Shown here: positions 2,265-49,993 of the stretch, in pieces | Layout of the letters: every line of letters starts with the position of its first letter | Position numbering within the stretch: position 1 is the first letter of the stretch | From: an uncultured virus (IMG/VR IMGVR_UViG_2061766007_001334) | Taxonomy: Duplodnaviria > Heunggongvirae > Uroviricota > Caudoviricetes | Virus record (IMG/VR): IMGVR_UViG_2061766007_001334 | Strand: one strand, 5' to 3' | Length of the DNA: 49,993 bases | Position numbers and translations under genes: made by a program | The notes under the pieces: model-generated | What the model was told of the DNA's origin: nothing | What the model saw: only the letters and a program-made list of their open reading frames with translations | Database searches by the model: none

Positions 2265-2281
2265 AGCCCTTCTTTTTCCTT

Positions 2282-30420: not shown

Positions 30421-30860
30421 TGCTTACTGTAAAGAACATATCCAAGACTCTTGATTTTGCAAAGATAAGCGACTTGCTCCACTTTGCCCTTGATGGCAAG
30501 CTGGAGCACGATGTCGTCGTCAACATCATCGAGTACGACCATATCCTTGACCGCCTTTCCACCCCGGATTTTGAACTCAAGGCGATTACCTATCCCACGA
30601 ATATCGACCACAACTATTCGCTCATCATCCGCAGGGGCGCGAGCCGCTTGGAGGAAATTGTGCTTCACGAATCCATCCACCTGACGCAGTATGAGGCCGG
30701 GCAGCTGAAATTCAACGTGCAGTCCGGGCGCTGCGAATGGGACGGCGTTTCCTTCTCTGCTTCGTTCCCGTATGAGGCGCGTCCGTGGGAAAAGGAGGCG
30801 TTCAGGGGTCAGTATGATCTGCTCGCGGCTTGGCGAAAACACAACAAAAAACTCAAATAA
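30420..30860 (+). CDS. putative zinc metallopeptidase (HExxH)
   Basis: VLHESIHLTQY...PWEKEA. Confidence 0.7.
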   Translation: MLTVKNISKTLDFAKISDLLHFALDGKLEHDVVVNIIEYDHILDRLSTPDFELKAITYPTNIDHNYSLIIRRGASRLEEIVLHESIHLTQYEAGQLKFNVQSGRCEWDGVSFSASFPYEARPWEKEAFRGQYDLLAAWRKHNKKLK

Positions 30861-30862
30861 CT

Positions 30863-31891: not shown

Positions 31892-31907
31892 TTAACAACC
31901 AACAGAC

Positions 31908-33111: not shown

Positions 33112-33124
33112 AAACGACTGAGCT

Positions 33125-34445: not shown

Positions 34446-34474
34446 GGGTGGGTGCAGCCTTAACCCGTACCAAG

Positions 34475-34906
34475 ATGCAAACAAGAGGCAACAAGGCGAA
34501 GAGGGACAAGGATTCCATTCTTGCAGATGTGAAGAATCTCCTGAAAATTCTTCATCCGGCGCTCCAGAATATGAACAAGATAGAGCGCTCGGAGGGTGCG
34601 CCGCATGAAATGAAAATGGCGTGTTATAACATGATTCGCTATTTCACGATTGCGAAGGCGAGCCCCGAAGTGAGAAAGGACTACATCGACAAGATGACCG
34701 GCGAATACGGAGCCCCTCTCGCCGCCTTCGAGTTGAGCATCTCTTTCGGGCTTCTTACGGATAGTTTGCAATTACGCATAGCGGAACAATTAGAACGGAT
34801 ACAGGAAGGCGTAGACAAGTGGCGCAACGCATCGCGCTCANNNNNNNNNNNNNNNNNNNNNNNNCGGTCACGGAATCCCCGCAGAGCTCGCTGCCAGTAT
34901 GAATAG
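34475..34906 (+). CDS. avd: DGR accessory variability determinant, Avd-like (3' end uncertain because of a gap)
   Basis: Basic helical protein of ~125-140 aa between VR and TR; ...LERIQEGVDKWRN C-terminal helix. Confidence 0.75.
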   Translation: MQTRGNKAKRDKDSILADVKNLLKILHPALQNMNKIERSEGAPHEMKMACYNMIRYFTIAKASPEVRKDYIDKMTGEYGAPLAAFELSISFGLLTDSLQLRIAEQLERIQEGVDKWRNASRSXXXXXXXXRSRNPRRARCQYE

Positions 34907-34957
34907 GTAAAAGGGGACGCTACTATCATTTATAGTATCAACAAAATGCGTTCAGAC

Positions 34958-35083
34958 ACTCCACGAACCGTTGGTTTGCCCAGAGGTACAACGTGAACAA
35001 CGCTTGGAATTTCAACGGCAACAACGGCAACCTCAACAACAACAACGTGAACAACGCGAATCAGGTGGGAGCCGTCACGATAT
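34958..35083 (+). ncRNA. DGR template repeat (TR)
   Basis: AAC-rich repeat directly upstream of the RT; homologous to both VR1 and VR2. Confidence 0.95.
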
Positions 35084-35106
35084 TACCGAAAACAGTATTT
35101 ACGCTT

Positions 35107-36369
35107 ATGACCGACGAAAGGTTCTTTTCGATTATGGTGCAGACCATGTTTAACGCTCGCAAAAACAAGCGTTACGGGCGCGATAGCGCAGATTTCGAGA
35201 GAAACTGGGCTCCGCGTCTTGTCCGCATGACGCACCAGCTACAAGAGAGAACCTTCCGCGTTGACCACAACTACGCCTTCCTTACTTCCATCCCCAAGTG
35301 GCGTGAGATTTTCGCCACGATCTTCGAGGGCCGCACGGCTGACCATCTGCTCTGCGACACCCTTGAAAAGTATGCCGCAACATGGCTCTCGCCCCGCACC
35401 TTCAACAACCGTAAGGGTATGGGTATGCAGGCGGCCATCAATCAAGTCCTCGAGGACATCTACGAAGCGACGCAGGGCTTTACCCAGCCATGCCGGATAA
35501 TCAAATGGGATTTGAGCGGATTCTTCCCGAATGCGCAGAACGACTACATAGAGCGCTGCTATCGCAATCTTATTGAGCACAACCGCGAAGCTATTGCGGC
35601 GGAATACGACGACGAAATGCCAAACTTCCTCCAATGGCTTGCGATGATCTGCGTACATGGCAACCCCGCGCAGCATTGCGAGCTTCGGACACCGAAGCGG
35701 CTATGGGGCGAGCACATCAAGCCGGACAAATCGCTCATCGGAAAGCCGCCGGGAATCGGTTGCCCGATCGGTCGTCAGGCAAGCCAGATCGGAATGGGCC
35801 TATATCTCAACGATGAAATCGTATGGCTCAACAAAGACTGCGGAATCCGCTCGACATTGTTTATGGATGACTGCGTGGAGGTAGTACCCGAATGGCAGCA
35901 CCAGTACGCGTTATCCCTGTTCCCCGAACTGCGGCGCAGGCTCGCGGCAAAGGGTATCAGGCTGAACGAACACAAGTTCTATGACCAGCCCTATTATCGC
36001 GGCTTCGAGTTTCTCGGAAGCCATATCAAGCTGAATAGGGTGCATCTCAACAACAAGACTTACGGAAGGGCGAGAATGCGCATCGGCGAACTTAACGCCC
36101 TGCCGAACAAATTAGCCTACATCGACCATTTCGTGCAGACAATGAACAGTTACATCGGTCTGCTCAAGAACAGAACGGACTACAAGCGGATGCTTGCGCT
36201 CGTCGATATGGCCGATGCCGGGTGGTGGACGATGTGCGAATGGAACGACGAAAAGAAATGCGTCGCATACCGTCCCGGATACAAACCAAATGAAAGACTC
36301 GTAACCAAATATCATCTAAAACTCAAACGAAATGACAAAAGCAGAAATTCAAGAGCTCAAAAACATTGA
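35107..36369 (+). CDS. DGR reverse transcriptase
   Basis: Motifs KWREIFA, NRKGMG, IIKWDLSGFFPN, GCPIGRQASQ (DGR-type PIG...SQ), LFMDD, GFEFLG. Confidence 0.95.
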   Translation: MTDERFFSIMVQTMFNARKNKRYGRDSADFERNWAPRLVRMTHQLQERTFRVDHNYAFLTSIPKWREIFATIFEGRTADHLLCDTLEKYAATWLSPRTFNNRKGMGMQAAINQVLEDIYEATQGFTQPCRIIKWDLSGFFPNAQNDYIERCYRNLIEHNREAIAAEYDDEMPNFLQWLAMICVHGNPAQHCELRTPKRLWGEHIKPDKSLIGKPPGIGCPIGRQASQIGMGLYLNDEIVWLNKDCGIRSTLFMDDCVEVVPEWQHQYALSLFPELRRRLAAKGIRLNEHKFYDQPYYRGFEFLGSHIKLNRVHLNNKTYGRARMRIGELNALPNKLAYIDHFVQTMNSYIGLLKNRTDYKRMLALVDMADAGWWTMCEWNDEKKCVAYRPGYKPNERLVTKYHLKLKRNDKSRNSRAQKH

Positions 36370-36634
36370 GCAGGCCAAGATTCTTGAGGCACAGGCTGAC
36401 CTCGTTGGGGCCGACTACAAAGACCACAAGATGTGCGAGGCGGCCATCCGCTTCCTCTGCGACAAGTATCCCACTATGGCCGCAGCACTTCCTTATCCGC
36501 TGACCGTCTTCGACGAGCGTGACGATCTCCGTGCGCAGATCAACGCCGCACAGGAACGTATCGCCGAACTCGATGCCATCGTCCCGGAGGACGAGGACGA
36601 TCCGAATGGCGATCCCGTGGAAAACGAAAATTAA
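36332..36634 (+). CDS. small helical protein, tail fibre chaperone-like
   Basis: ADYKDHKMCEA...ERDDLRAQINAAQERIAEL; overlaps the RT 3' end by 38 nt. Confidence 0.55.
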   Translation: MTKAEIQELKNIEQAKILEAQADLVGADYKDHKMCEAAIRFLCDKYPTMAAALPYPLTVFDERDDLRAQINAAQERIAELDAIVPEDEDDPNGDPVENEN

Positions 36635-36734
36635 CCACCATCGGGCGGGAGTAGGCGGCAGCGTGTCANNNNNNNNNNNNNNNNNNNNNNNNNNNNNNNN
36701 NGACGAAACCGCCCGATATTAAAACCACATCACA

Positions 36735-37289
36735 ATGGAAAAATTCTCCCTCATCTGCACGATTGCAAGCCTCGTGATATTCGTGGGGTTCTTGGCAATC
36801 TCCATCCGCAAGTTCAAGTTCCAGCCGTCGTATTCGGATTTCAGCCCGCTTTGGGACAAGGCGGTTCCGATCCACAATATGCACCTCTGGAGCATCATCA
36901 CATTTTTCTTCGGCGCGTTGCTGATCCCGGCCCTTTGCGAACTCGGCCAGAGCAACCCGTGGCAATTCTTGGGATTCTTCGCGCCGATATACCTGATTAT
37001 CGTGGCCATCTTTCCTTTGGAGGAAATAACCGACAAGGATAGCGAAGAAGACAAGAAACGCAAGGAGCGCAACCGCAAGATACACACCTTCGCCGCCGCA
37101 GCCTGCGCCGTGATAGCGACACTCTGGGTTATCCTTGTCTGCAAGATTTACTGGCTGCTCCCGGTGTCGCTGCTTATTGCTTGGTGCATGGCTTATGCCA
37201 CCGCCACGGTTAAGTCCAGCTATATCTTCTGGTTTGAAATGGCCGCTTTCGGGGCCATCTACGCCTCGATATTCCTGATAGGAGGTTAA
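36735..37289 (+). CDS. multi-pass membrane protein
   Basis: About six hydrophobic segments; start of the lysis cluster. Confidence 0.75.
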   Translation: MEKFSLICTIASLVIFVGFLAISIRKFKFQPSYSDFSPLWDKAVPIHNMHLWSIITFFFGALLIPALCELGQSNPWQFLGFFAPIYLIIVAIFPLEEITDKDSEEDKKRKERNRKIHTFAAAACAVIATLWVILVCKIYWLLPVSLLIAWCMAYATATVKSSYIFWFEMAAFGAIYASIFLIGG

Positions 37290-37292
37290 GCT

Positions 37293-37613
37293 ATGGGACT
37301 CAAGAAATTCGCCTGCAACGTGCGCACGAGCACCACGATTGCCCTTATGTCCTGCATTATGGCCGCAGTAGGGCTATCCATTGCCTCGTTCATCGTTCCG
37401 CCGACGGGTGTCATCGACCCCAGCGTACTGAAATTCGCATCGTGGCTCTTCGCCTTTGCGTCACTCGCCGTAACACGCGAGGCCATCCGCGAGGGTCTGG
37501 GCGCGAAGTTTACGCACGGCAATACGACCATCGAGATCAAGGATCAGGATGGCGATGACGGGGAACCAGAATTTACAGAACCACATAGAAGAAATCACGA
37601 TGGCAAGTTTTGA
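37293..37613 (+). CDS. holin candidate
   Basis: Two transmembrane segments and a charged tail; overlaps the endolysin start. Confidence 0.6.
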   Translation: MGLKKFACNVRTSTTIALMSCIMAAVGLSIASFIVPPTGVIDPSVLKFASWLFAFASLAVTREAIREGLGAKFTHGNTTIEIKDQDGDDGEPEFTEPHRRNHDGKF

Positions 37614-38109
37614 CAAATACGCCCCGAAGCTGCGTAAGTGGGAGGGCAACAAATTCGTTAACGACCCCGACGATTACGGCGGGGCAACCAACAAGGGTGT
37701 TACCCTTGACACCTTCCGCATGGTCTACGGGGCGGACAAAACCGTAGACGACCTTCGGAACATGACCGAAGAGCAATGGCGCGGAGTAATGAAGGGTTAC
37801 TTTTGGGATAAGTGCAAGGGGGATATGATCAACAACCAGTCCGTAGCGGAGATATTCGTGGACTGGTGCATCAATGCCGGAATCGACAAGATCAAGAGGG
37901 TGCAGGCGATGGTAGGTACGAAGGCCGACGGAGTTGTTGGCCCGAAGACCGTCTTTGCCATCAATTCCGCAACGCAGGAGTCCCTTCATGGAAAGATAAA
38001 GCTCGCCCGGGCCAAGAGGTATGTCACGCAGATTGAGAACAAAGCCTCGCAGATGAAATACTTTAACGGGTGGTTCAATCGAATCATCGACTTCAACTAC
38101 GAAAAATGA
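37600..38109 (+). CDS. endolysin, glycoside hydrolase family 108 with peptidoglycan-binding domain
   Basis: WEG..VNDPDDYGGATNKGVT, ADGVVGPKT, GWFNRI. Confidence 0.9.
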   Translation: MASFDKYAPKLRKWEGNKFVNDPDDYGGATNKGVTLDTFRMVYGADKTVDDLRNMTEEQWRGVMKGYFWDKCKGDMINNQSVAEIFVDWCINAGIDKIKRVQAMVGTKADGVVGPKTVFAINSATQESLHGKIKLARAKRYVTQIENKASQMKYFNGWFNRIIDFNYEK

Positions 38110-38633
38110 GCAAGTATTCCATCTGTGTCGTCGTAATCCTCCTGCTCGGTGCGGTCGCGGCCTTCTTTGTTGGCGACCATCGGGGGCGCGTACACGCCCT
38201 TGATGGCTACGAACCGAAGACAGATACGATCGTAAAAACCGCGACGGTCTATAAAGACTTCCCAGATGTGACAAAAACAGCCCAAATCGGCGTTATCGCC
38301 GTGCCGAGGTACAAGTTTATTGCCGACACGATCACGGCGACAGAAACGGCCTATCTGCACGATACGACCTATGTCTATCTTCCCCGCGAACAGAAGTATT
38401 ACGAGGAAGATTCCGCAAGGGTACGCATCTGGGTTTCCGGGTACGAGCCGCGCCTCGACCGCTACGAGGTTGACTACAAGACGGTGTATGTAACGCAGAC
38501 GCTCACAAAGAAGCCTCCGCGATGGGGGTTGGGTATTTCCGCAGGGTTCGGCGCGACCATATCGAAAGAGCGCGTCGTCAGCCTTGCGCCGTACATCGGA
38601 ATCGGCTTGCAGTACAACTTGGTAAGCTGGTAA
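38106..38633 (+). CDS. membrane-anchored lysis-cluster protein (spanin-like candidate)
   Basis: N-terminal transmembrane segment; C-terminal RWGLGISAGFG...PYIGIGLQYN. Confidence 0.55.
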   Translation: MSKYSICVVVILLLGAVAAFFVGDHRGRVHALDGYEPKTDTIVKTATVYKDFPDVTKTAQIGVIAVPRYKFIADTITATETAYLHDTTYVYLPREQKYYEEDSARVRIWVSGYEPRLDRYEVDYKTVYVTQTLTKKPPRWGLGISAGFGATISKERVVSLAPYIGIGLQYNLVSW

Positions 38634-38636
38634 AAC

Positions 38637-38670
38637 AAAAAAGGGGAGCAACCTTTCGGTCACTCCCCTT
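38637..38670. terminator. terminator hairpin between convergent operons
   Basis: AAGGGGAG...CTCCCCTT stem with an A-run on its left (U-tract for minus-strand RNA). Confidence 0.65.
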
Positions 38671-38737
38671 CGTCATCTTGCGCTCGGTGGTATTATCCAG
38701 AATATGCCGTCCTTCGGTTCTGTCCCGATCTGGACGG

Positions 38738-39052
38738 TCACTCCGAATTGTTTTCCGTAAAGCGGCACAACCCTCCGTGTGAGGCCGACCGCCGTNNNNN
38801 NNNNNNNNNNNNNNNNNNCAACCGCAGCTTGAATCCGTCGTCGTTCTCGGTCTTGATTATCCCGTACTTTGTCTTGTCTACCTTATCCTGCACCACATAG
38901 ATACGCTCGTGCTCGTGAATGTCAAGCAGCAGGCAGGCCCTGCGCGAGAAATAGACCACACCGTTTCGCGTGTCAAACCGCATTGTGGGTGCGCCCCTCT
39001 CCGGCAACTTTGCCGGGTAGGTGTTCCTGTTGATGATCGTGTACTCAGCCAT
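38738..39052 (-). CDS. hypothetical protein (gapped; end uncertain)
   Basis: MAEYTIINRNTYP...GVVYFSRRAC. Confidence 0.6.
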   Translation of the reverse strand: MAEYTIINRNTYPAKLPERGAPTMRFDTRNGVVYFSRRACLLLDIHEHERIYVVQDKVDKTKYGIIKTENDDGFKLRLXXXXXXXXRRSASHGGLCRFTENNSE

Positions 39053-39377
39053 TGGAATCAACGAAATCGTAAATCATCTTTTCCAGACGCTCATAGCCCT
39101 CAAAATAGACATCTATCGCGTCCTGCGACATCCGGCCAAAGAAGGAATCATTCTTGATGTTACGGGCGCACAACTCCTGAATCTGCTTCATGTTGTGCTT
39201 GATCTCGTATTTCCATCGCCCCCGCTCCTCGAGTAGCCGCCTGATGTCATCCATCAGGTTATTCTGGACGCAGGCGAGCATCTGTACGCCGATAATTTTC
39301 TTCCTGATTTTCTCCACGACCTCCGGCTCGTGGTTCTGGAGTTCCGATTTCAGCGTAACGCTAACTTCTTTAGCCAT
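39045..39377 (-). CDS. hypothetical protein
   Basis: 110-aa ORF in a packed operon. Confidence 0.7.
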   Translation of the reverse strand: MAKEVSVTLKSELQNHEPEVVEKIRKKIIGVQMLACVQNNLMDDIRRLLEERGRWKYEIKHNMKQIQELCARNIKNDSFFGRMSQDAIDVYFEGYERLEKMIYDFVDSNG

Positions 39378-39835
39378 TGGTCTTCTTATACGGAATCACA
39401 TTGACTTCAATGGAGTACACCTTCCGGCCATCCTCTTTCTCCGTCATTCGGATGCGGTTGCTAAAGAACTTCATCGTGGCGTAACCCAGTTTGGATGCGA
39501 GGGACTTGTAAATCGCCCTGTCGTCGACCTTCGCCCCGGCCTCAACGANNNNNNNNNNTGAGGGACTTGTAAATCGCCCTGTCGTCGACCTTCGCCCCGG
39601 CCTCAACGACATAGTTACCCCAGACTTTCTGGCAGGCGGCGAAATCGACCATCGTAGTCCGAAGCTGGCGCTCCCAAAGGTCGAGTTCGCGTTCTTTCTT
39701 CATAAGGCCGTTGTAGACCGTATCAAGGTCTTTCTTTCGGAGTTCGGCCTCTTTGGTCAGGCTTCTACCCTTGCAGTAGAAGAAAATGGCCACGGCGAGA
39801 ACCAGCGCCGCAACCACAATGATAAAAGTGTTCAT
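39370..39835 (-). CDS. membrane-anchored hypothetical protein (one gene once a 50-nt scaffold overlap is collapsed)
   Basis: N-terminal transmembrane segment; both halves share VEAGAKVDDRAIYKSL. Confidence 0.65.
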
Positions 39836-40017
39836 TCTGTTATGATGTTAATTGTTGTTACTTCGTCCCTTCCGAAACCAATAGGCCGCTTGCGCTCGAT
39901 TTCTATGCTCGTTACGCGAAGCCCGGTCGTGTGCTCGAACCAGTAAATCCCGTCAAGAACATAGTCTTGAAGCTGAACCTTCGGCGGTCGCGGATCGGTC
40001 TTTCTTTTCTTGCTCAT
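39832..40017 (-). CDS. hypothetical protein
   Basis: MSKKRKTDPRPPKVQLQDY...; ATGA overlap with the next gene. Confidence 0.55.
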   Translation of the reverse strand: MSKKRKTDPRPPKVQLQDYVLDGIYWFEHTTGLRVTSIEIERKRPIGFGRDEVTTINIITE

Positions 40018-40171
40018 ATTTTTTCGTAAGGATGCGGATACCGCCNNNNNNNNNNCACCATCCAAGTCGCACCATCCCATAACGCCCGGACGCAAATGGA
40101 GGGTTTGCGGTCAAGGATGGCCCACACGGGGCGGCCCACATCCGGCTTGTAGCGTTCTGCGCTATTCCACA

Positions 40172-40731
40172 TTACTTCGTCCAGATGGTTTTTATCCTTC
40201 GGAAATCCTCTCCATCCGGCACGGGACAGTCCTTAATCCACTTTATCTTCTTTACCTTCCACCTCGGGTAGTTTTCCTCGATGGTTCCGCGAAAGGCGCT
40301 GATCTTTCGGAATAGCGGACGCACACTTTGGAAGATGTTGAGGCGGAGCGAAATCTTGTCGTTCTTAATGAAACTGACTGCGCTGTTCAGTTTGATAAAA
40401 TCCCATACACCACGCTCGTCGTGCGGGGTAAAGCAAATGCCGTCCAGATCACGGAAAATGTCAATCGCAACCGGGGTCGGCAAGGACGGGAATTGTGCCG
40501 TGTACAGGTAGATAATCGTGTGCTTCCCGGTGTATTCGTCGCTCTTTCGGATGCTTTGGATCAGCTTGTATGTCCGCATCGGGAAGAGCATCGGCTCGCC
40601 GCCCGTGATGTCGATTTCGTCATAAGCACCCANNNNNNNNNNNNNNNNNNNNNNNNNNNNCGGTTGTTGCAACAGAGCGGGCAATGCCGGTCGCACTCAG
40701 CCGTTACAAGGAGTCGCAGCTTTTTATTCAT
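40172..40731 (-). CDS. radical SAM domain protein (gapped)
   Basis: MNKKLRLLVTAECDRHCPLCCNN (CxxxCxxC), then after the gap EIDITGGEPML. Confidence 0.8.
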
Positions 40732-41020
40732 CTTCCAGAATCTTTTTCATTTGCTTCGGCTCCCGAATCTCGGGATGCGCCTCGAGCGTTGCAATGAACT
40801 TGTCGCGGCCAACCTTGCGGTAAATCGGCTGGAAATCCCTTCGGATAAGGTCTGCCGGTTCGCNNNNNNNNNNNNNNNNNNNNNNNNNNNNNNNNNNNNN
40901 NNNNNNNNNNNNNNNNNNNNNNNNNNNNNNNNNNNNNNNNNNNNNNNNNNNNNNNNNNNNNNNNNNNNNNNNNNNNNNNNNNNNNNNNNNNNNNNNNNNN
41001 NNAAAATCGGTGTCATAGAT

Positions 41021-41248
41021 TTATTTGTCATACGGTTCTTTTGGAAAGTGATCATGCCATTTGCCGAAGCCGGTGGGCGTACCGTCCTTATATCGTTTCG
41101 GTGCGCAATCGGAGCACAGATGCTTTCCTTTATACTCCTCGCCAACTTCCGACCAATCGGCATCTTCGGCATTGAGGGTGGCGCACCAATACCAGCCAAG
41201 AGCGGTGTTTTCGGCGCACCCGCATTTCTCGCATTTGAATATCGACAT
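41021..41248 (-). CDS. small Cys-rich hypothetical protein
   Basis: FKCEKCGCAENTA...LCSDC...GKWHDHFPK. Confidence 0.7.
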   Translation of the reverse strand: MSIFKCEKCGCAENTALGWYWCATLNAEDADWSEVGEEYKGKHLCSDCAPKRYKDGTPTGFGKWHDHFPKEPYDK

Positions 41249-41250
41249 AG

Positions 41251-41820
41251 TTAAGCCCCGTTGCGAAGTTTCTCAATCAGCGCATCTGCGTATGAGATCG
41301 CGTTGCCAACGACGACATCTTTGAAGTAGGCCACCTGAAAGCGCGAATAATCGCTATGGGCCTCAAAGTGATTCATCCACGTAGGGTTCGCAAGGATAGC
41401 TGTGGCGAAATCCTTTGCGGCATTTCTGCGAAACTCCTCCCACTCGTCGGTATCTCCACTATCCAAACTGCGGCCATCAAAGATATTACCATCTATGAAC
41501 AGCTTGTCGTAGCCATCAATGTCGCAAGTATCGCTGGCGCTGGTAATCCCTTTGTAATAGCCGCTCAGTTCCCTCCTGTCGCAGTCGATCACATAAAAAT
41601 ACTCGTGATCCCAAGATGGGCCGTGGTCTATAAACTCAAAGTCATCATCACGGCTATTGATAAACTTTCCAAGCTGTTCGGGATTCCACTCGCCACTATA
41701 CTCTTTTAGCAAGGAAACCAAATCTTCGCCAACCCCACTTGGGTATCCATCGCAATGATGATGAAAATGAACCGGCTCGGAGCCTTTCTTTACGATTCTT
41801 ACATAAGCCCTTGTGCTCAT
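41251..41820 (-). CDS. hypothetical phage protein with HxDGYP motif
   Basis: HFHHHCDGYPSGVG...HEYFYVID; C-terminal AISYADALIEKL module. Confidence 0.75.
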   Translation of the reverse strand: MSTRAYVRIVKKGSEPVHFHHHCDGYPSGVGEDLVSLLKEYSGEWNPEQLGKFINSRDDDFEFIDHGPSWDHEYFYVIDCDRRELSGYYKGITSASDTCDIDGYDKLFIDGNIFDGRSLDSGDTDEWEEFRRNAAKDFATAILANPTWMNHFEAHSDYSRFQVAYFKDVVVGNAISYADALIEKLRNGA

Positions 41821-41823
41821 ATT

Positions 41824-42117
41824 CTAAAACAATTTTGGTAGGTTTCTTACACTCGGCTTGCGCCGATTCCTGCGTTTTCGCTCGGTCTTGCGGTACGGGC
41901 AATTCCATTGCTGGCAAGCGTCATACGACCGCTGCGAGATTGGCTCTCTGCTTCCCATTCGGATAAAGATGTCGCGCTGAACAGCACACCGAACCGGGGT
42001 GTATCTGTCCTCCTTCTCGATATACCGTGATGCCTTCACACATCGGTCGCAGTTGTTAGACTCCCAATTCATAAAATCTGTCCCATTGGAAAATGGATCT
42101 TGGCTAATCTTTTTCAT
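41824..42117 (-). CDS. Cys-containing hypothetical protein
   Basis: FSNGTDFMNWESNNCDRC. Confidence 0.7.
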   Translation of the reverse strand: MKKISQDPFSNGTDFMNWESNNCDRCVKASRYIEKEDRYTPVRCAVQRDIFIRMGSREPISQRSYDACQQWNCPYRKTERKRRNRRKPSVRNLPKLF

Positions 42118-42257
42118 AGCGACCGTATTTTATTGAGCAAATCTTGGGGGCCAATATCGGCGCGGATCGGATGCTCCACTAAATCCTTGCGGATGTACTC
42201 TGCGTGTTCCACGGTATAACCGCGCATTGATAAGCGAAATTGCAGCGTAAATAGGTA

Positions 42258-42719
42258 TCATGTCGTTTCTTCTTTCAGCAAGATCAGCTTTACTTTATCG
42301 CCTTTATTCAACCCTAATTTGTTCATCTCGCTCGGCAAATACCAATAATCAACCGAAGCTGGGTTATGTAATATTATCTCGTTTAAGCAGGGGACTTGTG
42401 ATACTACTGCACTTATCGCCCCTTTCATCATCTGCCGCTTCTCCCATTCAATGCCGTATCTAATAGCGTCAATGAATGTCGGCAGGCAATGGTGCTCTTG
42501 AATATGTTTCGCCGCAAAGTCGGATTCAAGTTTGTAGTCCTCCGGGGACATCGCATCACAGGCAGCGAGTCGCTCTTTCTCAAATTGCTTTTTCTGCCAC
42601 TCGGCAAAGTGTTTCGCAATTCGAGATAGCTTGGCGAAAGATACCTCTGGATACCGCTTACTTACAGAATCAATCTCTCTTGCTAATTCATCCTCTATTT
42701 CTTCCTGTGTCATGGTCAT
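42258..42719 (-). CDS. hypothetical protein
   Basis: 153 aa; IAKHFAEWQK and GDKVKLI motifs. Confidence 0.7.
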   Translation of the reverse strand: MTMTQEEIEDELAREIDSVSKRYPEVSFAKLSRIAKHFAEWQKKQFEKERLAACDAMSPEDYKLESDFAAKHIQEHHCLPTFIDAIRYGIEWEKRQMMKGAISAVVSQVPCLNEIILHNPASVDYWYLPSEMNKLGLNKGDKVKLILLKEETT

Positions 42720-42952
42720 AGTGCGTCAAGTTCTCTTTGGAGTTTATGGGTTTCCCGCTCGAGGGCACCGAGCATTTTATTCCAGATGTCCCTCGGGATA
42801 CACCCATGATGATCCGGGCCGGCATTGGAATTACCGCACGTAACATCGACTGCGCACCAATAATAGGTGTCTTGCTGGCTCTTCAACAAAGCGTTGCAGT
42901 CGTCGATTCTTTCCTGTAAGGCATTGGCCTTCTTTAGTGTTTCTGCTTTCAT
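42716..42952 (-). CDS. hypothetical protein
   Basis: 78 aa, translationally coupled. Confidence 0.65.
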   Translation of the reverse strand: MKAETLKKANALQERIDDCNALLKSQQDTYYWCAVDVTCGNSNAGPDHHGCIPRDIWNKMLGALERETHKLQRELDAL

Positions 42953-43110
42953 ACTATTTCCTCCTTTTGTTCCGATTTTTTATCCATTTTCTTTTTCCAT
43001 CTACGGAACGATAAATTCTCAATCCACTCGCTAATCAGATACCAGCCACCGCAGATAAACCCGCATATCAAAGCACCGACAATGCCTTCAATAATATACC
43101 CCAATGTCAT
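42949..43110 (-). CDS. small membrane protein
   Basis: MTLGYIIEGIVGALICGFICGGWYLISEW...KEEIV*. Confidence 0.6.
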   Translation of the reverse strand: MTLGYIIEGIVGALICGFICGGWYLISEWIENLSFRRWKKKMDKKSEQKEEIV

Positions 43111-43112
43111 AT

Positions 43113-43414
43113 CTATTCCTCCTTTCTTGCGTCAAGAATTTCTTCAGCAAGATTTATCATTTTATTGAGNNNNNNNNNNNNNNNNNNNNNNNNNAATCAA
43201 GAAAATCCTCTTTGTAAACCTTGTAAGTATTATCTTTATTCCTTTCGTGCCATTTTTCATAGTCTTTTTGATGTCCTCCGTCACATAGATGCTTATACCC
43301 TATATGTTCGTTCATAACGGCATACACAGTTCCGTTTTCATCCCTAAATTCACGTTTTTCATAGATGTCTTTTACGATACCGTGTTTACACCCTGTCATA
43401 CAATTCCCTTTCAT
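43113..43414 (-). CDS. AT-rich hypothetical protein (gapped)
   Basis: MKGNCMTGCKHG...; after the gap a frame ends EEILDARKEE*. Confidence 0.55.
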
Positions 43415-43417
43415 ATC

Positions 43418-43684
43418 TTATTCCTCCTTTCTTGCGTTTAGTTCGTTGTCAATATACCTTTTGGCATACAAACGAATATCTTGTTTCCAATTCCACCTAC
43501 GCATCTTTACAAGTTTTCCATCTTTGTAGAAGAAATAGGTTAGTCCTTTTGTCAGCCCAGACAACATAATGACATCATAGCCGCCATAAGACATTGTTTG
43601 CAGGTGCTGGGAACCATGTGATTGCTTCAAGTATGCAAGTTTCTCGTCATAAGAATATCTTGCGTTTCGTTCAAATTCAGTCAT
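43418..43684 (-). CDS. AT-rich hypothetical protein
   Basis: MTEFERNARYSY...NARKEE*. Confidence 0.6.
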   Translation of the reverse strand: MTEFERNARYSYDEKLAYLKQSHGSQHLQTMSYGGYDVIMLSGLTKGLTYFFYKDGKLVKMRRWNWKQDIRLYAKRYIDNELNARKEE

Positions 43685-43712
43685 TACTTTCTTGCGCGTG
43701 ATGATCACATCG

Positions 43713-43904
43713 CTATCGGACACTCGACTTCCAGACATAGAACGAAGGGAATTTGGTTGCGTCGGAATACTCGACCTTGAGGTTATTCGTAAGTGTCGTT
43801 ACCGATCCGGGCGTGGCCCCGTGGGCGAGAGAGGCGTGGATGGCCGCAATCGCATCAAGCGGGGTCACATCGTCCGAATGGGTTACTGTAATTCGTTTGC
43901 TCAT
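43713..43904 (-). CDS. hypothetical protein
   Basis: 63 aa; ATGA overlap with the stop of target 2. Confidence 0.55.
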   Translation of the reverse strand: MSKRITVTHSDDVTPLDAIAAIHASLAHGATPGSVTTLTNNLKVEYSDATKFPSFYVWKSSVR

Positions 43905-44213
43905 CGCTCGATTATCTCGCTAATGACAACTCGGGCGGTGTAGCCTTTAATGAACTTGTAGACGAAGGCGGATGCGCGGTTCTCGGTCGTGAAATTCGCC
44001 GCAAACTCCAGCGCTTCCATGAGATTGTCGCTGGTGTGCAAGATTTCGTCTTCGGCGTTGTAGACTGCGTAATGCTCCTTCTTTGCGGCTTGCGCCGCAC
44101 GGCTTGGCGCGGGAGCGCCTTCGCCCAAAGGTTTAAGGATTAGGGTGTCGCCTTCGGCGGACACCGAACAAAGCGTGACGGCTCCCACCTGAATCGCGTT
44201 GCTCGCGTAGTTG
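43901..44213 (-). CDS. DGR target protein 2, 3' part (end of VR2 plus ~90-aa C-terminal extension)
   Basis: NYASNAIQVGAVTL CSVSAEGD...ISEIIER*; the first 44 nt match the TR 3' end. Confidence 0.8.
44144..44165 (-). promoter_or_regulatory. GC-rich hairpin 4 nt downstream of VR2 (DGR target-recognition element candidate)
   Basis: Minus strand GGTGTC-C-GCC-GAA-GGC-GACACC: 9-bp stem, 1-nt bulge, GAA loop. Confidence 0.7.
44170..44213 (-). repeat. DGR variable repeat VR2, 3' part
   Basis: Reverse complement aligns ungapped to TR 35040-35083 at 38/44, with a 19-nt perfect run TCAGGTGGGAGCCGTCACG; 5 of 6 mismatches are at TR adenines. Confidence 0.9.
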
Positions 44214-44223
44214 NNNNNNNNNN

Positions 44224-44349
44224 TTGTTTACCAAAGAGGAACTGGAGCAGATGCGCCAGATGAAGAATCAGGGCGCGACCTACAAGGAGATCGGAGAAAT
44301 GTTCGGAAGGTCGGAAGCTACCGTCCAAAACAAGTTCTCGAGGCTCGGC
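44224..44349 (+). CDS. helix-turn-helix protein fragment
   Basis: FTKEELEQMRQMKNQGATYKEIGEMFGRSEATVQNKFSRL. Confidence 0.7.
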
Positions 44350-44451
44350 NNNNNNNNNNAAGCACCTCTACAATCTCGGCTACCGTATCGAGAATAACCA
44401 GATCGTGATTGTGGAGAAACGGGTTGTGAATATCAAATCTGTTCTGGAAGA

Positions 44452-44673
44452 ATGAAAAATGTAAGACTATGCCTCCTGTTCCTGCTCGGCGCTTTTGCCG
44501 CCGGATGTGTGTTTTCGTATGTTCAAGGACTGGAGGAGGGCGCTCACGGCGAATGGTGGGTGCTGATTATCGCTGCCGCAGCCGGTATTTCCTGCTGGCT
44601 TCTCGGTCGGTTGTGGGACAGGCGCGGCAAGCTGCCGGATGAAGTGTTGAACCGTAATAATGACAGAGCGTAA
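44452..44673 (+). CDS. small two-transmembrane protein
   Basis: 73 aa with two hydrophobic segments. Confidence 0.6.
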   Translation: MKNVRLCLLFLLGAFAAGCVFSYVQGLEEGAHGEWWVLIIAAAAGISCWLLGRLWDRRGKLPDEVLNRNNDRA

Positions 44674-45089
44674 TGGAAAAAACATTGAAAGTTATTGCCG
44701 TCCTTCTGTCCCGGGTGTTAGGGATGATGAGCGGCGAAAATAGCGGCGATATTCTCGCCAGCGCAGAGGCGGTGGTCGACGCGCAGACACCGCCCAGCGA
44801 AGATGAGGGCGTGGAAAAAGTCTACCGGGCATATCCGACGAAATGCCCCGTCCGTGGTACGGCTACGGGAAAATGCCAGAAGAATAAGAACCAGATTCGT
44901 ACCCTGCTGAAAAAGCACACCCCGGACGAACTTGTTTGGACGATAAACCGATACATCGACGAGTGTACCCGCGGAAATGTCTATATCAAGAATTTCGGGA
45001 CATTCCTAAACCAACTCCCGGACTATTCGGATGAAATGCCGCCGGTTGAAGTTGCCTCATCCATTCCGAGGCCAAGACCGCAGGAGTAA
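44673..45089 (+). CDS. replication initiator / replisome organiser-like protein
   Basis: VYRAYPTK...YIKNFGTFLNQ pattern; directly upstream of the primase. Confidence 0.5.
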   Translation: MEKTLKVIAVLLSRVLGMMSGENSGDILASAEAVVDAQTPPSEDEGVEKVYRAYPTKCPVRGTATGKCQKNKNQIRTLLKKHTPDELVWTINRYIDECTRGNVYIKNFGTFLNQLPDYSDEMPPVEVASSIPRPRPQE

Positions 45090-45092
45090 GCG

Positions 45093-46055
45093 ATGATCAA
45101 CGAGCAAACCATTCGGCAGTATTGGAGCATCTTTCGGTCGGACGGTCAGCTTGTGGAGATTCGCATTCTCGGTGGCGGCAAAACATGGTCAGGATACTTT
45201 ACCGATGTCGAGGCCGCAATAGAGTCCATTCGTTCTTTCGACGGCTACGGAATCTATGCGACCATCAACCCGGTAAAAGCGGCGTGTTACAGTCGTTCCC
45301 AGCGTGACCATATCGAGCAGAGGCCGAAGGCCACAACTTCGGACACCGACATCGACTATCGAACCACGCTGCTGATCGACATCGACCCGAAACGCCCGGC
45401 GGACACCAACGCCTCCGCAGAAGAGGTCGAGGCGGCGCACAGGACGGCGGTCGCGGTTTACAACTTCCTTCTGGAGCAAGGCTTTGAGCGCCCGGTCGTC
45501 GCTTTCTCTGCCAACGGATACCACCTGTACTACCGGGTGTATCTGGCCAACACGGTCGAGATAGCCACGCTGGTCAAGAATTTCTTGGCGGCGCTCGATA
45601 TGCTCTTCACAGACGATGTTGTAAGCATCGACACCAGCGTATTCAACGCAAGCCGCATCGCCAAGCTGATCGGCACGACATCCAATAAGGGCACAAACAC
45701 CCCGGAGAGGCCGCAGCGCCTTTCGGAGTTCCGTTCCGTCCCCGTCGAATACCGCACGACGGACATTGCCTACATCCGCAAGGTTGCCGCCCTGCTGCCG
45801 GAGCCGGAGCCCCCGTCCCGCTTCAACGGCTATTCNNNNNNNNNNNNNNNNNNNNNNNNNNNNNNNNNNGATTCATCAACCAGCACGGGATCGAGGTTGT
45901 CAAGCGATCATCCTTCGGGCAGGGCGAAAAGCTGGTCTTGAGGGAGTGCCCGTTCAACGCGAACCACAAGGCCCCGGACGCGGCGCTCTTTCGGATGAAC
46001 TCCGGCGCTATCGGCTTCAAGTGCCTCCACAACTCCTGTCAGCATTACGGCTGGC
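45093..46055 (+). CDS. AEP-type primase plus Zn-binding domain; N-terminal half of a primase-helicase fusion
   Basis: LLIDIDPKRP and FSANGYHLYY; after a gap ECPFNANH...FKCLHNSCQHYGW; the last 18 nt overlap the reverse complement of 49976-49993. Confidence 0.75.
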
Positions 46056-46065
46056 NNNNNNNNNN

Positions 46066-46444
46066 TGGGCAAACCATTCTTCCCATTGCTCCTTGATCTC
46101 CGGCGCGACCTTCTCGCAAGTCCAGAACCATTGGCCCGGGCCGAAAATCTTGCCGCCAACCGCGTTGAGGATTTTAATGAGGCCATCCTTGATACTGTCG
46201 TACAGGTCGATGAACTCCTTGCGCGTAGGGCAGCGGAATGCAACGCCCGGCAACGCCGCGAGTTTCACTTTGGCCGCAACCTCCTGCGCCTCGTCGAACT
46301 TGTATTCATCATCGGTAAATTTCTTCTGGAAGACCAGCGCTTTGCCGTCATCCTNNNNNNNNNNNNNNNNNNNNNGGACTTCAACCATTCCTCCGGCGCA
46401 ACAAGCTGGTTCGTGCCGGGCTTCACAACATAGAGTTTTTCCAT
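46066..46444 (-). CDS. DGR target protein 2, 5' part (CLec / DUF1566-like motifs)
   Basis: MEKLYVVKPG...FRCPTRKEFIDLY...WFWTCE...EEWFA; ends at a gap in TGGTTTGCCCA, identical to TR 34972-34982 and in the same frame. Confidence 0.75.
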
Positions 46445-46445
46445 A

Positions 46446-46949
46446 TTAGTATTCTTCTTCGTAAGCAATAATAATCAAGACAATGCCGACAAGAATAGCG
46501 ATATAGCTCACGAGCCTCCACCATCCCCACATTGCATTGTCTGGGTAACGGGATATTCCATCGGGAATAGTAAGCTGTGTCCCGCTTTCGCCGTTGTCTG
46601 TCAGCGACTCTCGGACTTTCATCAGTACATTCGACTTTTCAAGCTGCGTCCCATCAAGACAATCTCGCAGCTCGCCTTGACACGCCTTGATGTTTTGATA
46701 CCAGAAGCCGATATTTTCGTCCTCGGTTTTCCAGAGGACGGAAGTGTAGCCATCCGTGAGATTATGGCTCTCGATATAGACAAGGGCATTATCTATGCGG
46801 ACGAGCGCGAGCTCTGCGGTATTCGCGTCCGCAGCCTGTTTGAGATACCCAGCGCATTGCTGGTCGAACTTAATACTTTTTACAACGCAGATCGTTGGCA
46901 CAATAAGGCCAGCGAAGATCAGGACGATCCCGAACAATGCTTTTTTCAT
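46446..46949 (-). CDS. membrane protein with transmembrane segments at both ends
   Basis: 167 aa; CAGYLKQAADANT. Confidence 0.75.
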   Translation of the reverse strand: MKKALFGIVLIFAGLIVPTICVVKSIKFDQQCAGYLKQAADANTAELALVRIDNALVYIESHNLTDGYTSVLWKTEDENIGFWYQNIKACQGELRDCLDGTQLEKSNVLMKVRESLTDNGESGTQLTIPDGISRYPDNAMWGWWRLVSYIAILVGIVLIIIAYEEEY

Positions 46950-46981
46950 ATTGAATCTTTTTTGTGTTTTTTCAAAATTCG

Positions 46982-47164
46982 TTAATCATAATCTTCGGAC
47001 GCATAGAACATTTGTCCGCATTCGAGGCAACGGGCGGAATACTCTGTTATTCCGTCGTGGGTTTCGTGGTCGTCGATTTCGTCGACGATGACCTCTTCGC
47101 CGCAGGAAGGGCAATCACATCTTAACAAATCGCCATCCCTGTACAATTTGGCTGTCATGCTCAT
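46982..47164 (-). CDS. Zn-ribbon protein
   Basis: CPSCG...CLECG. Confidence 0.7.
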   Translation of the reverse strand: MSMTAKLYRDGDLLRCDCPSCGEEVIVDEIDDHETHDGITEYSARCLECGQMFYASEDYD

Positions 47165-47166
47165 AG

Positions 47167-47786
47167 CTAACCCTCTTCTTTGGGAAGATCAATGATGTCG
47201 GAGATTTTGATTCTCCAGCCGTTAACGACAAGGTATCTTTCGCCGTTGTCGTTGTCGTCGCGGTAGATGAAGCAACCCTTGCCGCAGGGAGCCGGATGCC
47301 ACTTCGGGGATTCGTCGCGGATGGGCACTTTTGCGGCATCTATGATCTTCCGCGTCCACCCCTTAACGAAGCCAGCCGGGATTGGGCACTCCAGATCAGC
47401 GTAGTCCGCCAACATTTCGCAAAGCACATTTTCGAGAGGAGATAACTTGATGTCCATGATCTTCATTATCTCCTCCTGCGCGTTGTGGAAATTCTTGGCC
47501 ATTTCCTTCTTGGCGGAACCGAGGAGGCGTTCTGCTATGCTTCGCACCCTTTCGTTGTCGTATTTCCACCCTCTTTCTTGCTGTGCGCCCTCGAGAAACC
47601 CCTTGATCTCTCCCTCGAACTCACTCAATTCGGAAGCGATATACAGTTCGGAATCCTTCTCTATGACCAAGCCGCGTTTCTTGCCGTCGTAGCCATATAA
47701 TATCGCCTCTTCGTTATTCTCCCCCTGATTGATTCGGACGGCAACGCACGGCTCGCCGTTCCGCTTGAAATCCCAGCACATGACGG
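47167..47786 (-). CDS. hypothetical protein, 3' part (5' part is probably 48711-48802 on +)
   Basis: VMCWDFKRNGEP...IDLPKEEG*. Confidence 0.6.
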
Positions 47787-47796
47787 NNNNNNNNNN

Positions 47797-48045
47797 GACA
47801 TCGCTATCGAGGAAATGGCTGAGTTGACCGTTGCGTTGGAGCATTTCCGCCGTGGCCGCGCCACGATGGAGGAAGTCCAGACGGAAATCGCCGATGTGAC
47901 CATCTGCTGCCTGCAACTCGTCCAGATGTTCGGCGAGGAAGGCTGCAACGACCAGTTTGCCTACAAGCTGGAACGACTGAAACAACGACTTGAAGAATCG
48001 AAGCAAAATGAGAAGGAAAAGAGCGTACCGAAAGACGGTGCTTAA
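47797..48045 (+). CDS. MazG-like nucleotide pyrophosphohydrolase, 3' part (5' part is 48834-48903 on -)
   Basis: DIAIEEMAEL...EEVQTEIADV: EExxE and ExxD acidic motifs. Confidence 0.75.
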   Translation, partial: DIAIEEMAELTVALEHFRRGRATMEEVQTEIADVTICCLQLVQMFGEEGCNDQFAYKLERLKQRLEESKQNEKEKSVPKDGA

Positions 48046-48183
48046 AATCTACATCGCCCTTCTTACCGCACCGAGGACGGTATCTTGGAAGGGTAATGCC
48101 TGTGTGTCCCCAAAGGACTATCTTAACTGCGCAAAGGAATTTGCGCGTGAATATCTGGAGAATATCAACAAACCCGTGGAAAA

Positions 48184-48345
48184 ATGAAACCGACAGAGAG
48201 AGAAATTTACGATGTGCTCAACCAATGCGTTGAGGCGGAAGAAACCGGCGAAAGTAGATGGCCGGGCATGAGCTACGAACAGGGTGTAAAGGCTGGTATC
48301 GAATGGGTGCTCGGCCAGACAACCGACAACCCGTTGGACGACTAA
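48184..48345 (+). CDS. small hypothetical protein
   Basis: MKPTEREIYDVLNQC...WPGMSYEQGVKAGIEWVLG. Confidence 0.65.
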   Translation: MKPTEREIYDVLNQCVEAEETGESRWPGMSYEQGVKAGIEWVLGQTTDNPLDD

Positions 48346-48439
48346 CAACCGGGGCGCGGAAAAGAGGCAATCTGGACAGCGCTGGATCGTGACTCTGGAA
48401 AGCCAAGTACGCGCCCCTTCCTTAAATAAATGTCGGTCT

Positions 48440-48709
48440 ATGGAAATGAAACACCAAGATGGCTATAAGCCGTCTGCGGAAGAAACCGCAAAACTCAACG
48501 AGTTTATGTCATGGCTTGTAGATAACGGCTATGACGGGATTGTAATCATCCGCAAGGGCGATGTCGCCGTATCGTGGCTCCATGCGGAGAATGCAGAGGA
48601 AATCAAACACGCCCTTCTTAATTCCGCCTCGCACATCTTCCAAGAATCCGCAGAAGCCGGGATGGACTTTGCGAAAGGAATCTGTTTAGCCGCAAAGGAA
48701 CTGATGTGA
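48440..48709 (+). CDS. hypothetical protein
   Basis: MEMKHQDGY..., about 89 aa. Confidence 0.55.
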   Translation: MEMKHQDGYKPSAEETAKLNEFMSWLVDNGYDGIVIIRKGDVAVSWLHAENAEEIKHALLNSASHIFQESAEAGMDFAKGICLAAKELM

Positions 48710-48902
48710 TATGGAAGTAATCTCTGTTTTTAACATCGAGTACCGCCCTGCTATCGAAGCGGGTACTTACAGGCTGGTCATCGGCAAAGAGCGGCAGACC
48801 CCNNNNNNNNNNNNNNNNNNNNNNNNNNNNNNNTGACCTGTGCGTAGAAGCCCCGTTGCTTAATAGCGTCTGCGCAAAGCGCGTTGATTTCTTCTTTCTT
48901 CA

Positions 48903-49991
48903 TTATAGGGGTAAATCATCAAAATCATCTTCGTAGATGGCCGGGGAATCATCCCAGCCGTAAACGATATTCTCCGCCATTTCGTTCTTGATCCGGCGGG
49001 TTTCCTTTTCGTAGTACAACCCTATCAGCGCATCGACAACGCCCATAGAGCGGTTTTTCGCAACCTCGATGACCACATCATAGCCCATCAACTCCATAAC
49101 CTTCTGCGCACCGAAAAAGTCCTTTGCGCGGCGCTCAAAGTCGTTGCCGACACGGTGGGAGATAAGCAGATTGTCGCAGAGGTTCGTAAGGTTGGCGGTT
49201 CCGGCGATGGATTCCTTGCGGAGTAGCTGGAAGGATTGCTCCTTGCGCGGGTGGCAGACGATCAGCACATGGATGTTCGCCTCCTTCGCATAGCGCTTGA
49301 TGTCCTTGATGAACCGGGTTTCCTTCTCATTGGAAGAGCCACCCTGCGTGTCGTCGAGGTCGAGCGTCATCAGGTTATCCAGCAGCACAAGCTGAACGCC
49401 GCTCTCCTTTACGATGTCCTGTATGTCCGCAAAGAGATTCGTCCAGTTGTCGCCGTAGTCGTTGTTGTAGAGCCAGAACTTCCCGGCAAGCCAGTTGTTG
49501 ATACGCTCCGCAACGGCCTTCGGCGCGTAGTACAGATTCTCAAATCCCTGCTTCGGTACGACATTCGCCTTGCCTGCGGCCATCTGGTCGAGCCAGCCTT
49601 GAAACCTGAATCCCTGCAACTCCCCAGACCATGCCGCGACCTTGTAGCCACGGTTGGCGGCGTTTAGGATGAAGTGGTCGATAATGGTTGTCTTCCCGGA
49701 GCCCGACATACCCGAAAGGATGGTCACATCGCCGAGCGAGAATCCCATTATCCTGCGGTCGAGTTCCTCGATGCCTGACGGGATTGACACCAGCTTTGAC
49801 GGATCGTTCCATGCTATGTCGCCCATCTGGAGCCATTTCTTTCCGCGCTCGTCCTCCTTGACGGATTCGGGCTGCTTGGGTGCTGCGGTCTGGCCGTAGT
49901 ATTGGCGTTTCTGCCTGTGCTCCTCGCGGAAATGCGGATCGTAGGCCGTCGGGTCGAAATGCAGCCGGAAGTCGCGCCAGCCGTAATGCTG
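48903..49991 (-). CDS. DnaB-like SF4 replicative helicase; C-terminal half of the primase-helicase fusion
   Basis: IPSGIEELDRRIMG, Walker A GMSGSGKT, LVLLDNL, LIVCHPRK, KNR; frame is open to the window edge. Confidence 0.9.
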   Translation of the reverse strand, partial: QHYGWRDFRLHFDPTAYDPHFREEHRQKRQYYGQTAAPKQPESVKEDERGKKWLQMGDIAWNDPSKLVSIPSGIEELDRRIMGFSLGDVTILSGMSGSGKTTIIDHFILNAANRGYKVAAWSGELQGFRFQGWLDQMAAGKANVVPKQGFENLYYAPKAVAERINNWLAGKFWLYNNDYGDNWTNLFADIQDIVKESGVQLVLLDNLMTLDLDDTQGGSSNEKETRFIKDIKRYAKEANIHVLIVCHPRKEQSFQLLRKESIAGTANLTNLCDNLLISHRVGNDFERRAKDFFGAQKVMELMGYDVVIEVAKNRSMGVVDALIGLYYEKETRRIKNEMAENIVYGWDDSPAIYEDDFDDLPL

Positions 49992-49993
49992 AC

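Follow-up and report, generated by a model that had tools for sequence, protein, structure and literature searches.

In Bordetella phage BPP-1, the diversity-generating retroelement (DGR) transfers a template repeat (TR), with changes specific to adenines, into a variable repeat (VR) at the lectin-fold binding site of Mtd. This protein is the single target of its system, a tail-fibre protein of the virion that is encoded next to the retroelement and carries the VR at its C-terminus. The present work concerns a DGR on a 49,993-nt stretch of DNA from an uncultured tailed virus (IMG/VR record IMGVR_UViG_2061766007_001334; the whole stretch is referred to as the window). The same adenine-specific transfer into a putative lectin-type site appears to operate here, but in addition to a tail-side VR (VR1) there is a second one, VR2, which is distant from the TR and internal to its gene, unlike the single, adjacent, C-terminal VR of Mtd.

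Retroelements with two targets have been described. According to Benler et al. (2021, Microbiome 9:78, PMC8008677), one TR in Quimbyvirus serves two VRs, both in C-type-lectin-type proteins: the first target follows the tail-fibre genes, and the second, distal to the structural module and on the opposite strand, is read by these authors as a non-structural protein involved in phage-host conflict. The window has the same layout (a single TR, one VR after tail genes, a distal second one among non-structural genes of the opposite strand), and the strand is confirmed on an independent contig. However, the RT (reverse transcriptase) of Quimbyvirus is described as spread over three frames, whereas that of the window is one open reading frame (ORF), and the distal target is reported beside a nuclease, methyltransferases and a tRNA ligase rather than the primase-helicase and small ORFs found here. 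In four gut prophage species a second VR likewise lies far from the RT cassette, where it was found by BLAST with the TR and read as part of an arms race (Dahlman et al., 2025, Nature 647:698, PMC12629997). As reported there, these phages were cultured and induced from human-gut Bacteroidota and have the VR near a DNA methyltransferase; in contrast, the window phage is uncultured, comes from ruminant-gut metagenomes and has VR2 in a replication operon. The Bacuni phages of Bacteroides uniformis have two DGR targets, one beside RT, Avd and TR and one distant (Hedzet et al., 2021, PMC8143477). Among cultured phages, theirs are the RTs that come closest to the window RT (26-28% identity), and their targets are described as matching the fimbrial tip protein BACOVA_04982 (4eps_A), which also heads the fold search with the window target. 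In that account, however, the Bacuni VRs encode the C-terminal 35 residues and the two targets are interpreted as adhesins that affect host range, while VR2 is internal, with 90 residues after it, in a short protein that has no adhesin-type N-terminal part. The novelty that the earlier note implied for this arrangement was therefore overstated, as it had been published for Quimbyvirus and Bacuni in 2021 and for the four prophage species in 2025; what is new is the family, the internal VR with its added tail, and the resolved misassembly. Two remarks in this literature concern detection: variable repeats break contig assemblies (PMC8008677), and the survey of Roux et al. (2021, PMC8144416) was by its own description unable to detect remote targets.

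A split gene and its variable repeat

The window very probably holds one DGR cassette with two VRs, the second inside a single 254-codon gene that a misplaced block has split, and rewritten at adenine-templated positions. The scaffold itself is a low-coverage metagenome assembly of a tailed phage with 39 runs of N (10-139 nt each), which are estimated scaffold gaps, not one-to-one masks, so that reading frames shift across them. Its probable source is a bovine gut metagenome (run X1), and 29-46% of sampled window words were found in 18 further runs from ten other studies. Contig joints were taken from sequences placed on the window at 90% likeness, in X1 and in runs from three other studies (X3, X4 and X10), and an independent 10.6-kb contig from another metagenome (L001) was used as the unbroken reference.

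On the minus strand, 46444-46066 and 44213-43901 form one gene of about 254 codons. The ATG at 46444 opens 23 codons (46376-46444) that are identical to the N-terminus of the orthologues P0003-P0006. The 21-N scaffold gap that follows (46355-46375) does not keep the frame, and contigs place extra letters there; its real content is 13 codons, corresponding to orthologue residues 24-36. Residues 37-128 (46077-46354) form a conserved protein scaffold with the family motifs FRCPTR and WFWTCE, after which come the first 11 nt of VR2 (46066-46076; TGGTTTGCCCA, WFAQ), identical to TR 34972-34982. At this point a 10-N joint (46056-46065) leads into an unrelated plus-strand block (block Y) where the next 57 nt of VR2 would be expected. 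On the other side of block Y a further 10-N joint (44214-44223), marked by contig joints, precedes the last 40 nt of VR2 (44174-44213), which match TR 35040-35079. The frame then stays open for 90 codons up to a stop at 43901-43903, and this C-terminal extension (43901-44173) consists of LCSVSAEGDTLILKP, a low-complexity linker and a domain of about 57 aa.

To obtain orthologues, the N-side piece (P0002) was used as query in a word-indexed search restricted to longer proteins. P0003 (254 aa) is 98% identical to the P0002 part, P0004 has 261 aa, and the cluster members P0005 (the L001 copy) and P0006 again have 254 aa. In P0003, P0005 and P0006 the N half, a VR of 36 codons and the C half are present together at 90-98% identity. 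The order is that of the window's 23 N-terminal residues, the 13 residues of the 21-N gap, the P0002 part, the VR and the C-side piece P0001, which shares the same ...SEIIER end with the orthologues. L001 aligns as 46448-46066, then a 108-nt VR2, then 44202-43696, and contains no sequence of 44224-46055. Joints from 44199, 44201 or 44210 to 46066 occur in contigs of X3, X4 and X10; the X4 contig has 69 letters between the two sides (the 57 missing nt plus 12 variable ones), and its shorter side is 126 letters long. In X1, one contig ends 15 letters beyond 44198 and another extends 64 letters past 46066 into the VR. Since the intact VR2 of L001 is 108 nt long without indels relative to the TR, 57 nt are missing from the window (108 - 11 - 40). 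Several proposals of the earlier note thus stand: that the two halves belong to one gene of about 250 aa, that 57 nt of its VR are lacking, that the VR is internal with some 90 codons after it, and that intact VR-carrying orthologues should be sought (P0003-P0006).

The differences between TR and VR2 follow the adenines of the template. In L001 the two repeats are 84% identical, and all 17 mismatches over 108 nt fall on the 36 TR adenines (P = 3e-10). Among four orthologues, 16 of the 36 VR codons vary, every one of them with an A (15 AAY and one TAC), against 0/15 of the A-free codons (Fisher 3e-6); outside the VR, 15/218 columns vary among the three full-length proteins. The match reported by the earlier note between minus-strand 44213-44170 and TR 35040-35083 (38/44 identical, five of the six differences at TR adenines) was reproduced on recounting, with the repeat proper limited to its first 40 nt (36/40 identical, three differences at TR adenines plus one T>C); the last four positions, CTTT in both VRs and ATAT in the TR, lie outside the TR/VR homology. 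No inverted repeat within 30000-49993 is better than this pair (40 nt, 90%; the next has 28 nt, 71%), and the L001 TR finds the window's 3' piece of VR2 by blastn at E = 1e-8. The 11-mer at the gap edge, also recognized in that note as TR sequence in the WFAQ frame, occurs three times in the window against an expectation of 0.01 (VR1 at 34311, TR at 34972 and minus-strand 46066-46076, abutting the gap), and both pieces of VR2 are in the coding frame of the TR. The 15 letters of the X1 contig beyond 44198, read by hand, show five differences from the TR, each at a TR adenine, and disagree with the window allele at 8/15, so that two VR2 alleles coexist in the probable source sample. The T>C change of the window is present neither in the X1 allele nor in the orthologues. 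Within-population variation is here a matter of contigs, which break inside VR2, rather than of raw reads; matches on 44174-44213 with four differing letters were disregarded as cross-mapping TR contigs. The expected limitation of variation to adenines is accordingly seen across orthologues, in L001 and in the X1 allele, and, judged from these sequence patterns, VR2 is a genuine DGR target.

The remainder of the cassette lies on the plus strand. The TR (34958-35079) is identical in L001, and the RT gene (35101-36369; RVT_1, E 4.5e-7; phrog_1423, 8.5e-35) begins 22 nt after it and is 99.5% identical there. VR1, of which the first 75 nt are at 34297-34371, lies at the 3' end of the gene that closes the tail-side module, and its mismatches to the TR over this part are all at TR adenines (9/9). 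The rest of VR1 is lost in a 70-N gap (34372-34441), and its 3' end is visible in L001 (10554-10602), where five codons separate the VR from the end of the VR1 protein and the contig runs out within VR1. Between VR1 and TR is a 150-aa ORF (34475-34906) that is placed as Avd by position only; its L001 copy has a weak bAvd-like match (E 0.079, 13.9 bits against a cut-off of 40). After GTCACG both VRs continue with CTTTGT and the TR with ATATTA, and hairpins are present downstream of both VRs. In the BPP-1 system, a GC-rich element that distinguishes VR from TR (the IMH) and a downstream hairpin are the 3' recognition elements. By established DGR biology, the RT would copy TR RNA with adenine-specific errors, and the resulting cDNA would replace VR2 as well as VR1. 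Transfer may be guided by the shared GC-rich 3' end (…GGGAGCCGTCACG) together with the VR-specific CTTTGT, as against ATATTA in the TR.

Scaffold errors and gene order

Block Y (44224-46055, plus strand) contains a fragment of a helix-turn-helix (HTH) gene, genes for a membrane protein of 73 aa and a protein of 138 aa, and the primase portion that forms the N-terminus of a primase-helicase. As reconstructed from sequence, it belongs reverse-complemented beyond window position 49993, because three lines of evidence agree. Opposite-strand joints lead from 46037-46055 to 49975-49993 in 4/4 runs examined; block and window each end in 18 nt that are exact reverse complements of one another, with agreeing frames; and the two places match complementary parts of phrog_19 (621 positions), block Y at 12-132 and the window end at 329-582. 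The primase ORF of the block breaks off at 46055 and is taken up again in frame at 49991, where the last window ORF (49991-48903, minus strand) is open at its 5' end. This latter part (48903-49993, minus strand) is the helicase portion of the primase-helicase (phrog_239 at 9e-37, AAA_25, DnaB_C), the 5' part of which is in block Y. The idea that an unrelated plus-strand piece had been scaffolded into the gene is therefore upheld by the joints, the 18-nt overlap and the block-free L001.

A second scaffolding error affects the same operon. Opposite-strand joints from 47786 to 48802 and from 47797/8 to 48834-48836 (again in 4/4 runs examined) place the block 47797-48802 in inverted orientation in the scaffold, so that the ORF at 47167..48006 (minus strand) is a chimera. 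Elsewhere, the 10-N gap 39549-39558 has the same 50 nt, without a mismatch, on both sides (window 39499-39609), and L001 has this sequence once; these copies are evidently overlapping contig ends that were left unmerged. A second primase-like gene is found at the other end of the window (2219-3595, plus strand; phrog_864, E 3e-55).

After correction, the operon reads, in the minus direction, HTH gene, 73-aa membrane protein, 138-aa protein, primase-helicase, block 47797-48802, 47786-47167, a 60-aa Zn-ribbon protein, a 167-aa two-pass membrane protein, the VR2 target and small ORFs down to 38738, where it meets plus-strand lysis genes (endolysin, DUF6808). The VR2 target is thus five or so genes downstream of the primase-helicase. 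Its distance from the TR is 9.1 kb in the window and about 8 kb in L001, on the strand opposite to RT and TR. Both the distance and the opposite-strand relation are real, because a single unbroken stretch of L001 covers the VR2 gene, the strand switch, the lysis genes, the RT and the TR (L001 5422-10514 corresponds to window 39548-34444 at 96.5%). L001 and the gene families of the window therefore agree with the earlier placement of the target as remote, on the opposite strand and among non-structural genes.

The gene immediately upstream of the target (46446-46949, minus strand) encodes the 167-aa protein, which has a hydrophobic segment at either end. The stop codon of this gene lies one base before the target ATG at 46444, which suggests that the target is translationally coupled to it. 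On the other side, window and L001 differ at 42968-43696 and 41252-41822, in genomes that are otherwise 96-97% identical: about 0.7 kb adjoining the target is unrelated in L001, and a 189-aa ORF of the window is not in L001. These observations point to a mosaic accessory region beside the target.

Among relatives, the family gene of L009 directly follows a gene for a Gp2.5-like single-stranded DNA-binding protein, and an RT fragment is found 6.7 kb from it. In L004 a primase-helicase is 3 kb distant, in L005 the gene lies between integrase/repressor and terminase genes, and in L002 it is near a regulator and an endolysin. L002 and L003 are on one 78,423-nt contig with two identical family genes 39,119 nt apart; here a circular genome of some 39 kb was probably assembled as a concatemer of two copies. 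Outside L001, the TR was not found in the DNA retrieved for the remaining 12 loci, which are mostly short.

Protein family and predicted fold

The family comprises thirteen metagenome loci, and a profile search found at least 281 clusters at E ≤ 0.001 (120 listed). Most members have 152-163 aa and end 2 to 14 residues after the VR; near-invariant motifs include FRCPTR and W-x-W-T-C-E, and the alignment columns of two subfamilies have an entropy of 1.7 bits within the VR and 0.3 elsewhere. The C-terminal extension of the window target is confined to the P0003 and P0004 clusters when P0001 is compared with 1.84 billion representatives; two low-complexity repeat proteins that also matched P0001 were discounted. 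By tblastn against the 13 loci the tail matched only L001, an Atlas search with the tail gave no usable match, and its fold-search rows are generic helical matches on a low-confidence region. The 90-residue tail may be an added, lineage-specific module. P0004, which is present on five contigs, is identical through ...AAKKE and then has a wholly different 64-residue tail, either through a frameshift or through an exchanged module at the point where the lineage-specific extension begins.

The target is predicted to be soluble (maximum 19-aa hydropathy ≤ 1.26, versus 2.79 in the upstream membrane protein), and no signal peptide or membrane segment was seen in it. Searches by sequence gave little beyond the family itself. 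The family members P0003, P0011 and P0016 had no tblastn match in 50,697 phage records, a collection in which the presence of Quimbyvirus and the other published genomes was not checked, and megablast of 41000-49993 found nothing in the phage collection. A viral-contig search with either gene half returned at most the window itself, and P0003 had no match among genome contigs. PF21825 (Sequestin sponge) was not among the Pfam matches of P0003 or P0001 at E ≤ 10, and a profile of 123 family members had no match to PDB sequences at E ≤ 1.

A first structural model from 6 sequences had a pLDDT (predicted local distance difference test) of 56.9; with 123 sequences AlphaFold2 reached 68.1, residues 1-110 and 161-180 being at 83-95. 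In VIA, a fold search independent of Foldseek, the matches of residues 1-166 were the Bacteroides fimbrial tip protein 4eps_A (Z 6.2), the C-terminal domain of Legionella Lcl, 8q4e_A (Z 5.0), dectin-2 (Z 4.8) and the DGR variable protein TaqVP, 5vf4_A (Z 4.5). The target is therefore probably a C-type-lectin-like binder with 16 diversified Asn/Tyr codons; the fold matches are consistent with a lectin-type DGR scaffold without being proof of it. The earlier note had seen C-type-lectin or DUF1566 motifs in this protein. Its motifs FRCPTR and WFWTCE are indeed conserved in the family, but the C-type-lectin/DUF1566 assignment finds partial support: PF07603 (Lcl_C/DUF1566) did not match P0002 or P0003 even at E ≤ 10, and the fold is seen at Z scores of only 4.5-6.2. 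The model aligns weakly with 8q4e itself (106 residues, 16% identity), and one look-alike Atlas cluster has PF07603 on 13% of its members, whereas the window target has no Pfam match.

Competing readings and biological meaning

Several observations weigh against the account given here. The joint in X3 has a shorter side of 28 letters only, placed at 90% likeness. The join of 46066 to 44213 is seen in the X3, X4 and X10 contigs and in L001, but no X1 contig spans the VR (two stop within it and share only a few letters), so that for the source sample the join is drawn from relatives. The window's own piece of VR2 has one non-adenine difference, the T>C, and its 3/4 differences at A would be weak taken alone (hypergeometric p ~0.09, hand calculation). 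In the cassette, the match of the ORF in the Avd position stays below threshold, and the hairpins downstream of the VRs are no better than shuffles (z -0.74 and -1.5). Neither the target nor its halves have a usable Pfam, NCBIfam or PHROG match; Foldseek found nothing at E ≤ 0.001, its weak rows being mostly C-type-lectin domains. The VIA scores are in a range graded middling, and the model has a pLDDT < 55 in both the VR loop and the C-terminal tail. Finally, a gene in an early operon may still encode a virion protein.

Two alternatives concern the locus itself. The scaffold as it stands puts block Y inside the gene; taken literally, this would be a true insertion or inversion interrupting the gene of the window phage. 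This has practically no probability left: both ends of the block are 10-N joints, the primase ORF cut at 46055 resumes in frame at 49991, and the continuity of an X1 contig, which runs from block Y into 49993-48835, then to 46066 and into the VR, rules the insertion out. It is also conceivable that VR2 is a frozen relic that shares ancestry with the TR and is no longer rewritten, as the non-adenine difference of the window allele might suggest. Such an end to rewriting is very improbable, given that six VR2 alleles (P0003, P0004, P0005, P0006, the window and the X1 contig) sit on scaffolds that are 90-98% identical and differ from the TR at adenine positions, and that TR and RT are intact, the RT being highly conserved in L001.

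What the VR2 protein does is a separate matter. The target is predicted to be co-transcribed with the replication/early operon, made early and cytoplasmic, and it is tentatively proposed as a putative hypervariable binder inside the infected cell, directed at a variable molecule of the host or of a competitor. An intracellular binder, for example for anti-defence, had been offered in the earlier note as speculation, and it is plausible at no more than that strength. The protein could instead serve adsorption, as a virion accessory or as a cell-surface binder released at lysis, that is, a second diversified adhesin. To our knowledge, the phage DGR targets studied by experiment, Mtd of BPP-1 among them, are all receptor-binding proteins, which counts for this possibility. 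It would also suit two binders of related ligands that one TR templates both VRs, so that the same sequence space is explored, and the best fold match is the Bacteroides fimbrial tip protein. For the Bacuni phages, host-range differences are reported to map to the VRs (PMC8143477). Yet the target has no signal peptide and no recognisable virion-attachment domain, most family members are as short as given above, and the location is replication, early or lysogeny-side in the window and in 3/4 annotated relatives (L004, L005 and L009); a role in adsorption is on balance unlikely. A role on behalf of the lysogen or against competitors, as a diversified binder that excludes superinfecting phages or mobile elements, would fit the position of the L005 gene beside an integrase and a repressor-like gene and the coupling to a two-pass membrane protein. 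Published distal targets are described near defence or counter-defence genes (PMC8008677, PMC12629997), and the bacterial DGR-linked defence proteins mentioned by Dahlman et al. (2025, PMC12629997) are comparable. This role seems quite unlikely, however, as no integrase is among the scanned window ORFs and no defence-family match came up, although no dedicated defence search was made (PADLOC was not run).

Knowledge of what phage DGRs do comes almost entirely from tail fibres, and none of the distal, non-structural second targets, published three times so far, has an assigned function. Because the assembly broke in both VRs and an unrelated piece came to fill one of the breaks, VR2 would escape DGR finders that rely on repeats; the case shows how metagenome scaffolds hide DGR targets. 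It adds to the distal targets a well-populated family of small, soluble, easily expressed proteins, placed consistently in replication or early regions, together with a natural variant in which the VR is internal and a C-terminal module has been added. As a more doubtful extension of the intracellular role favoured here, the family may represent a class of putative early, DGR-diversified intracellular binders, evolved in real time against variable host defence or takeover targets, with a 57-residue module fused on in the window lineage and a single TR tuning both an extracellular adhesin and an intracellular binder.

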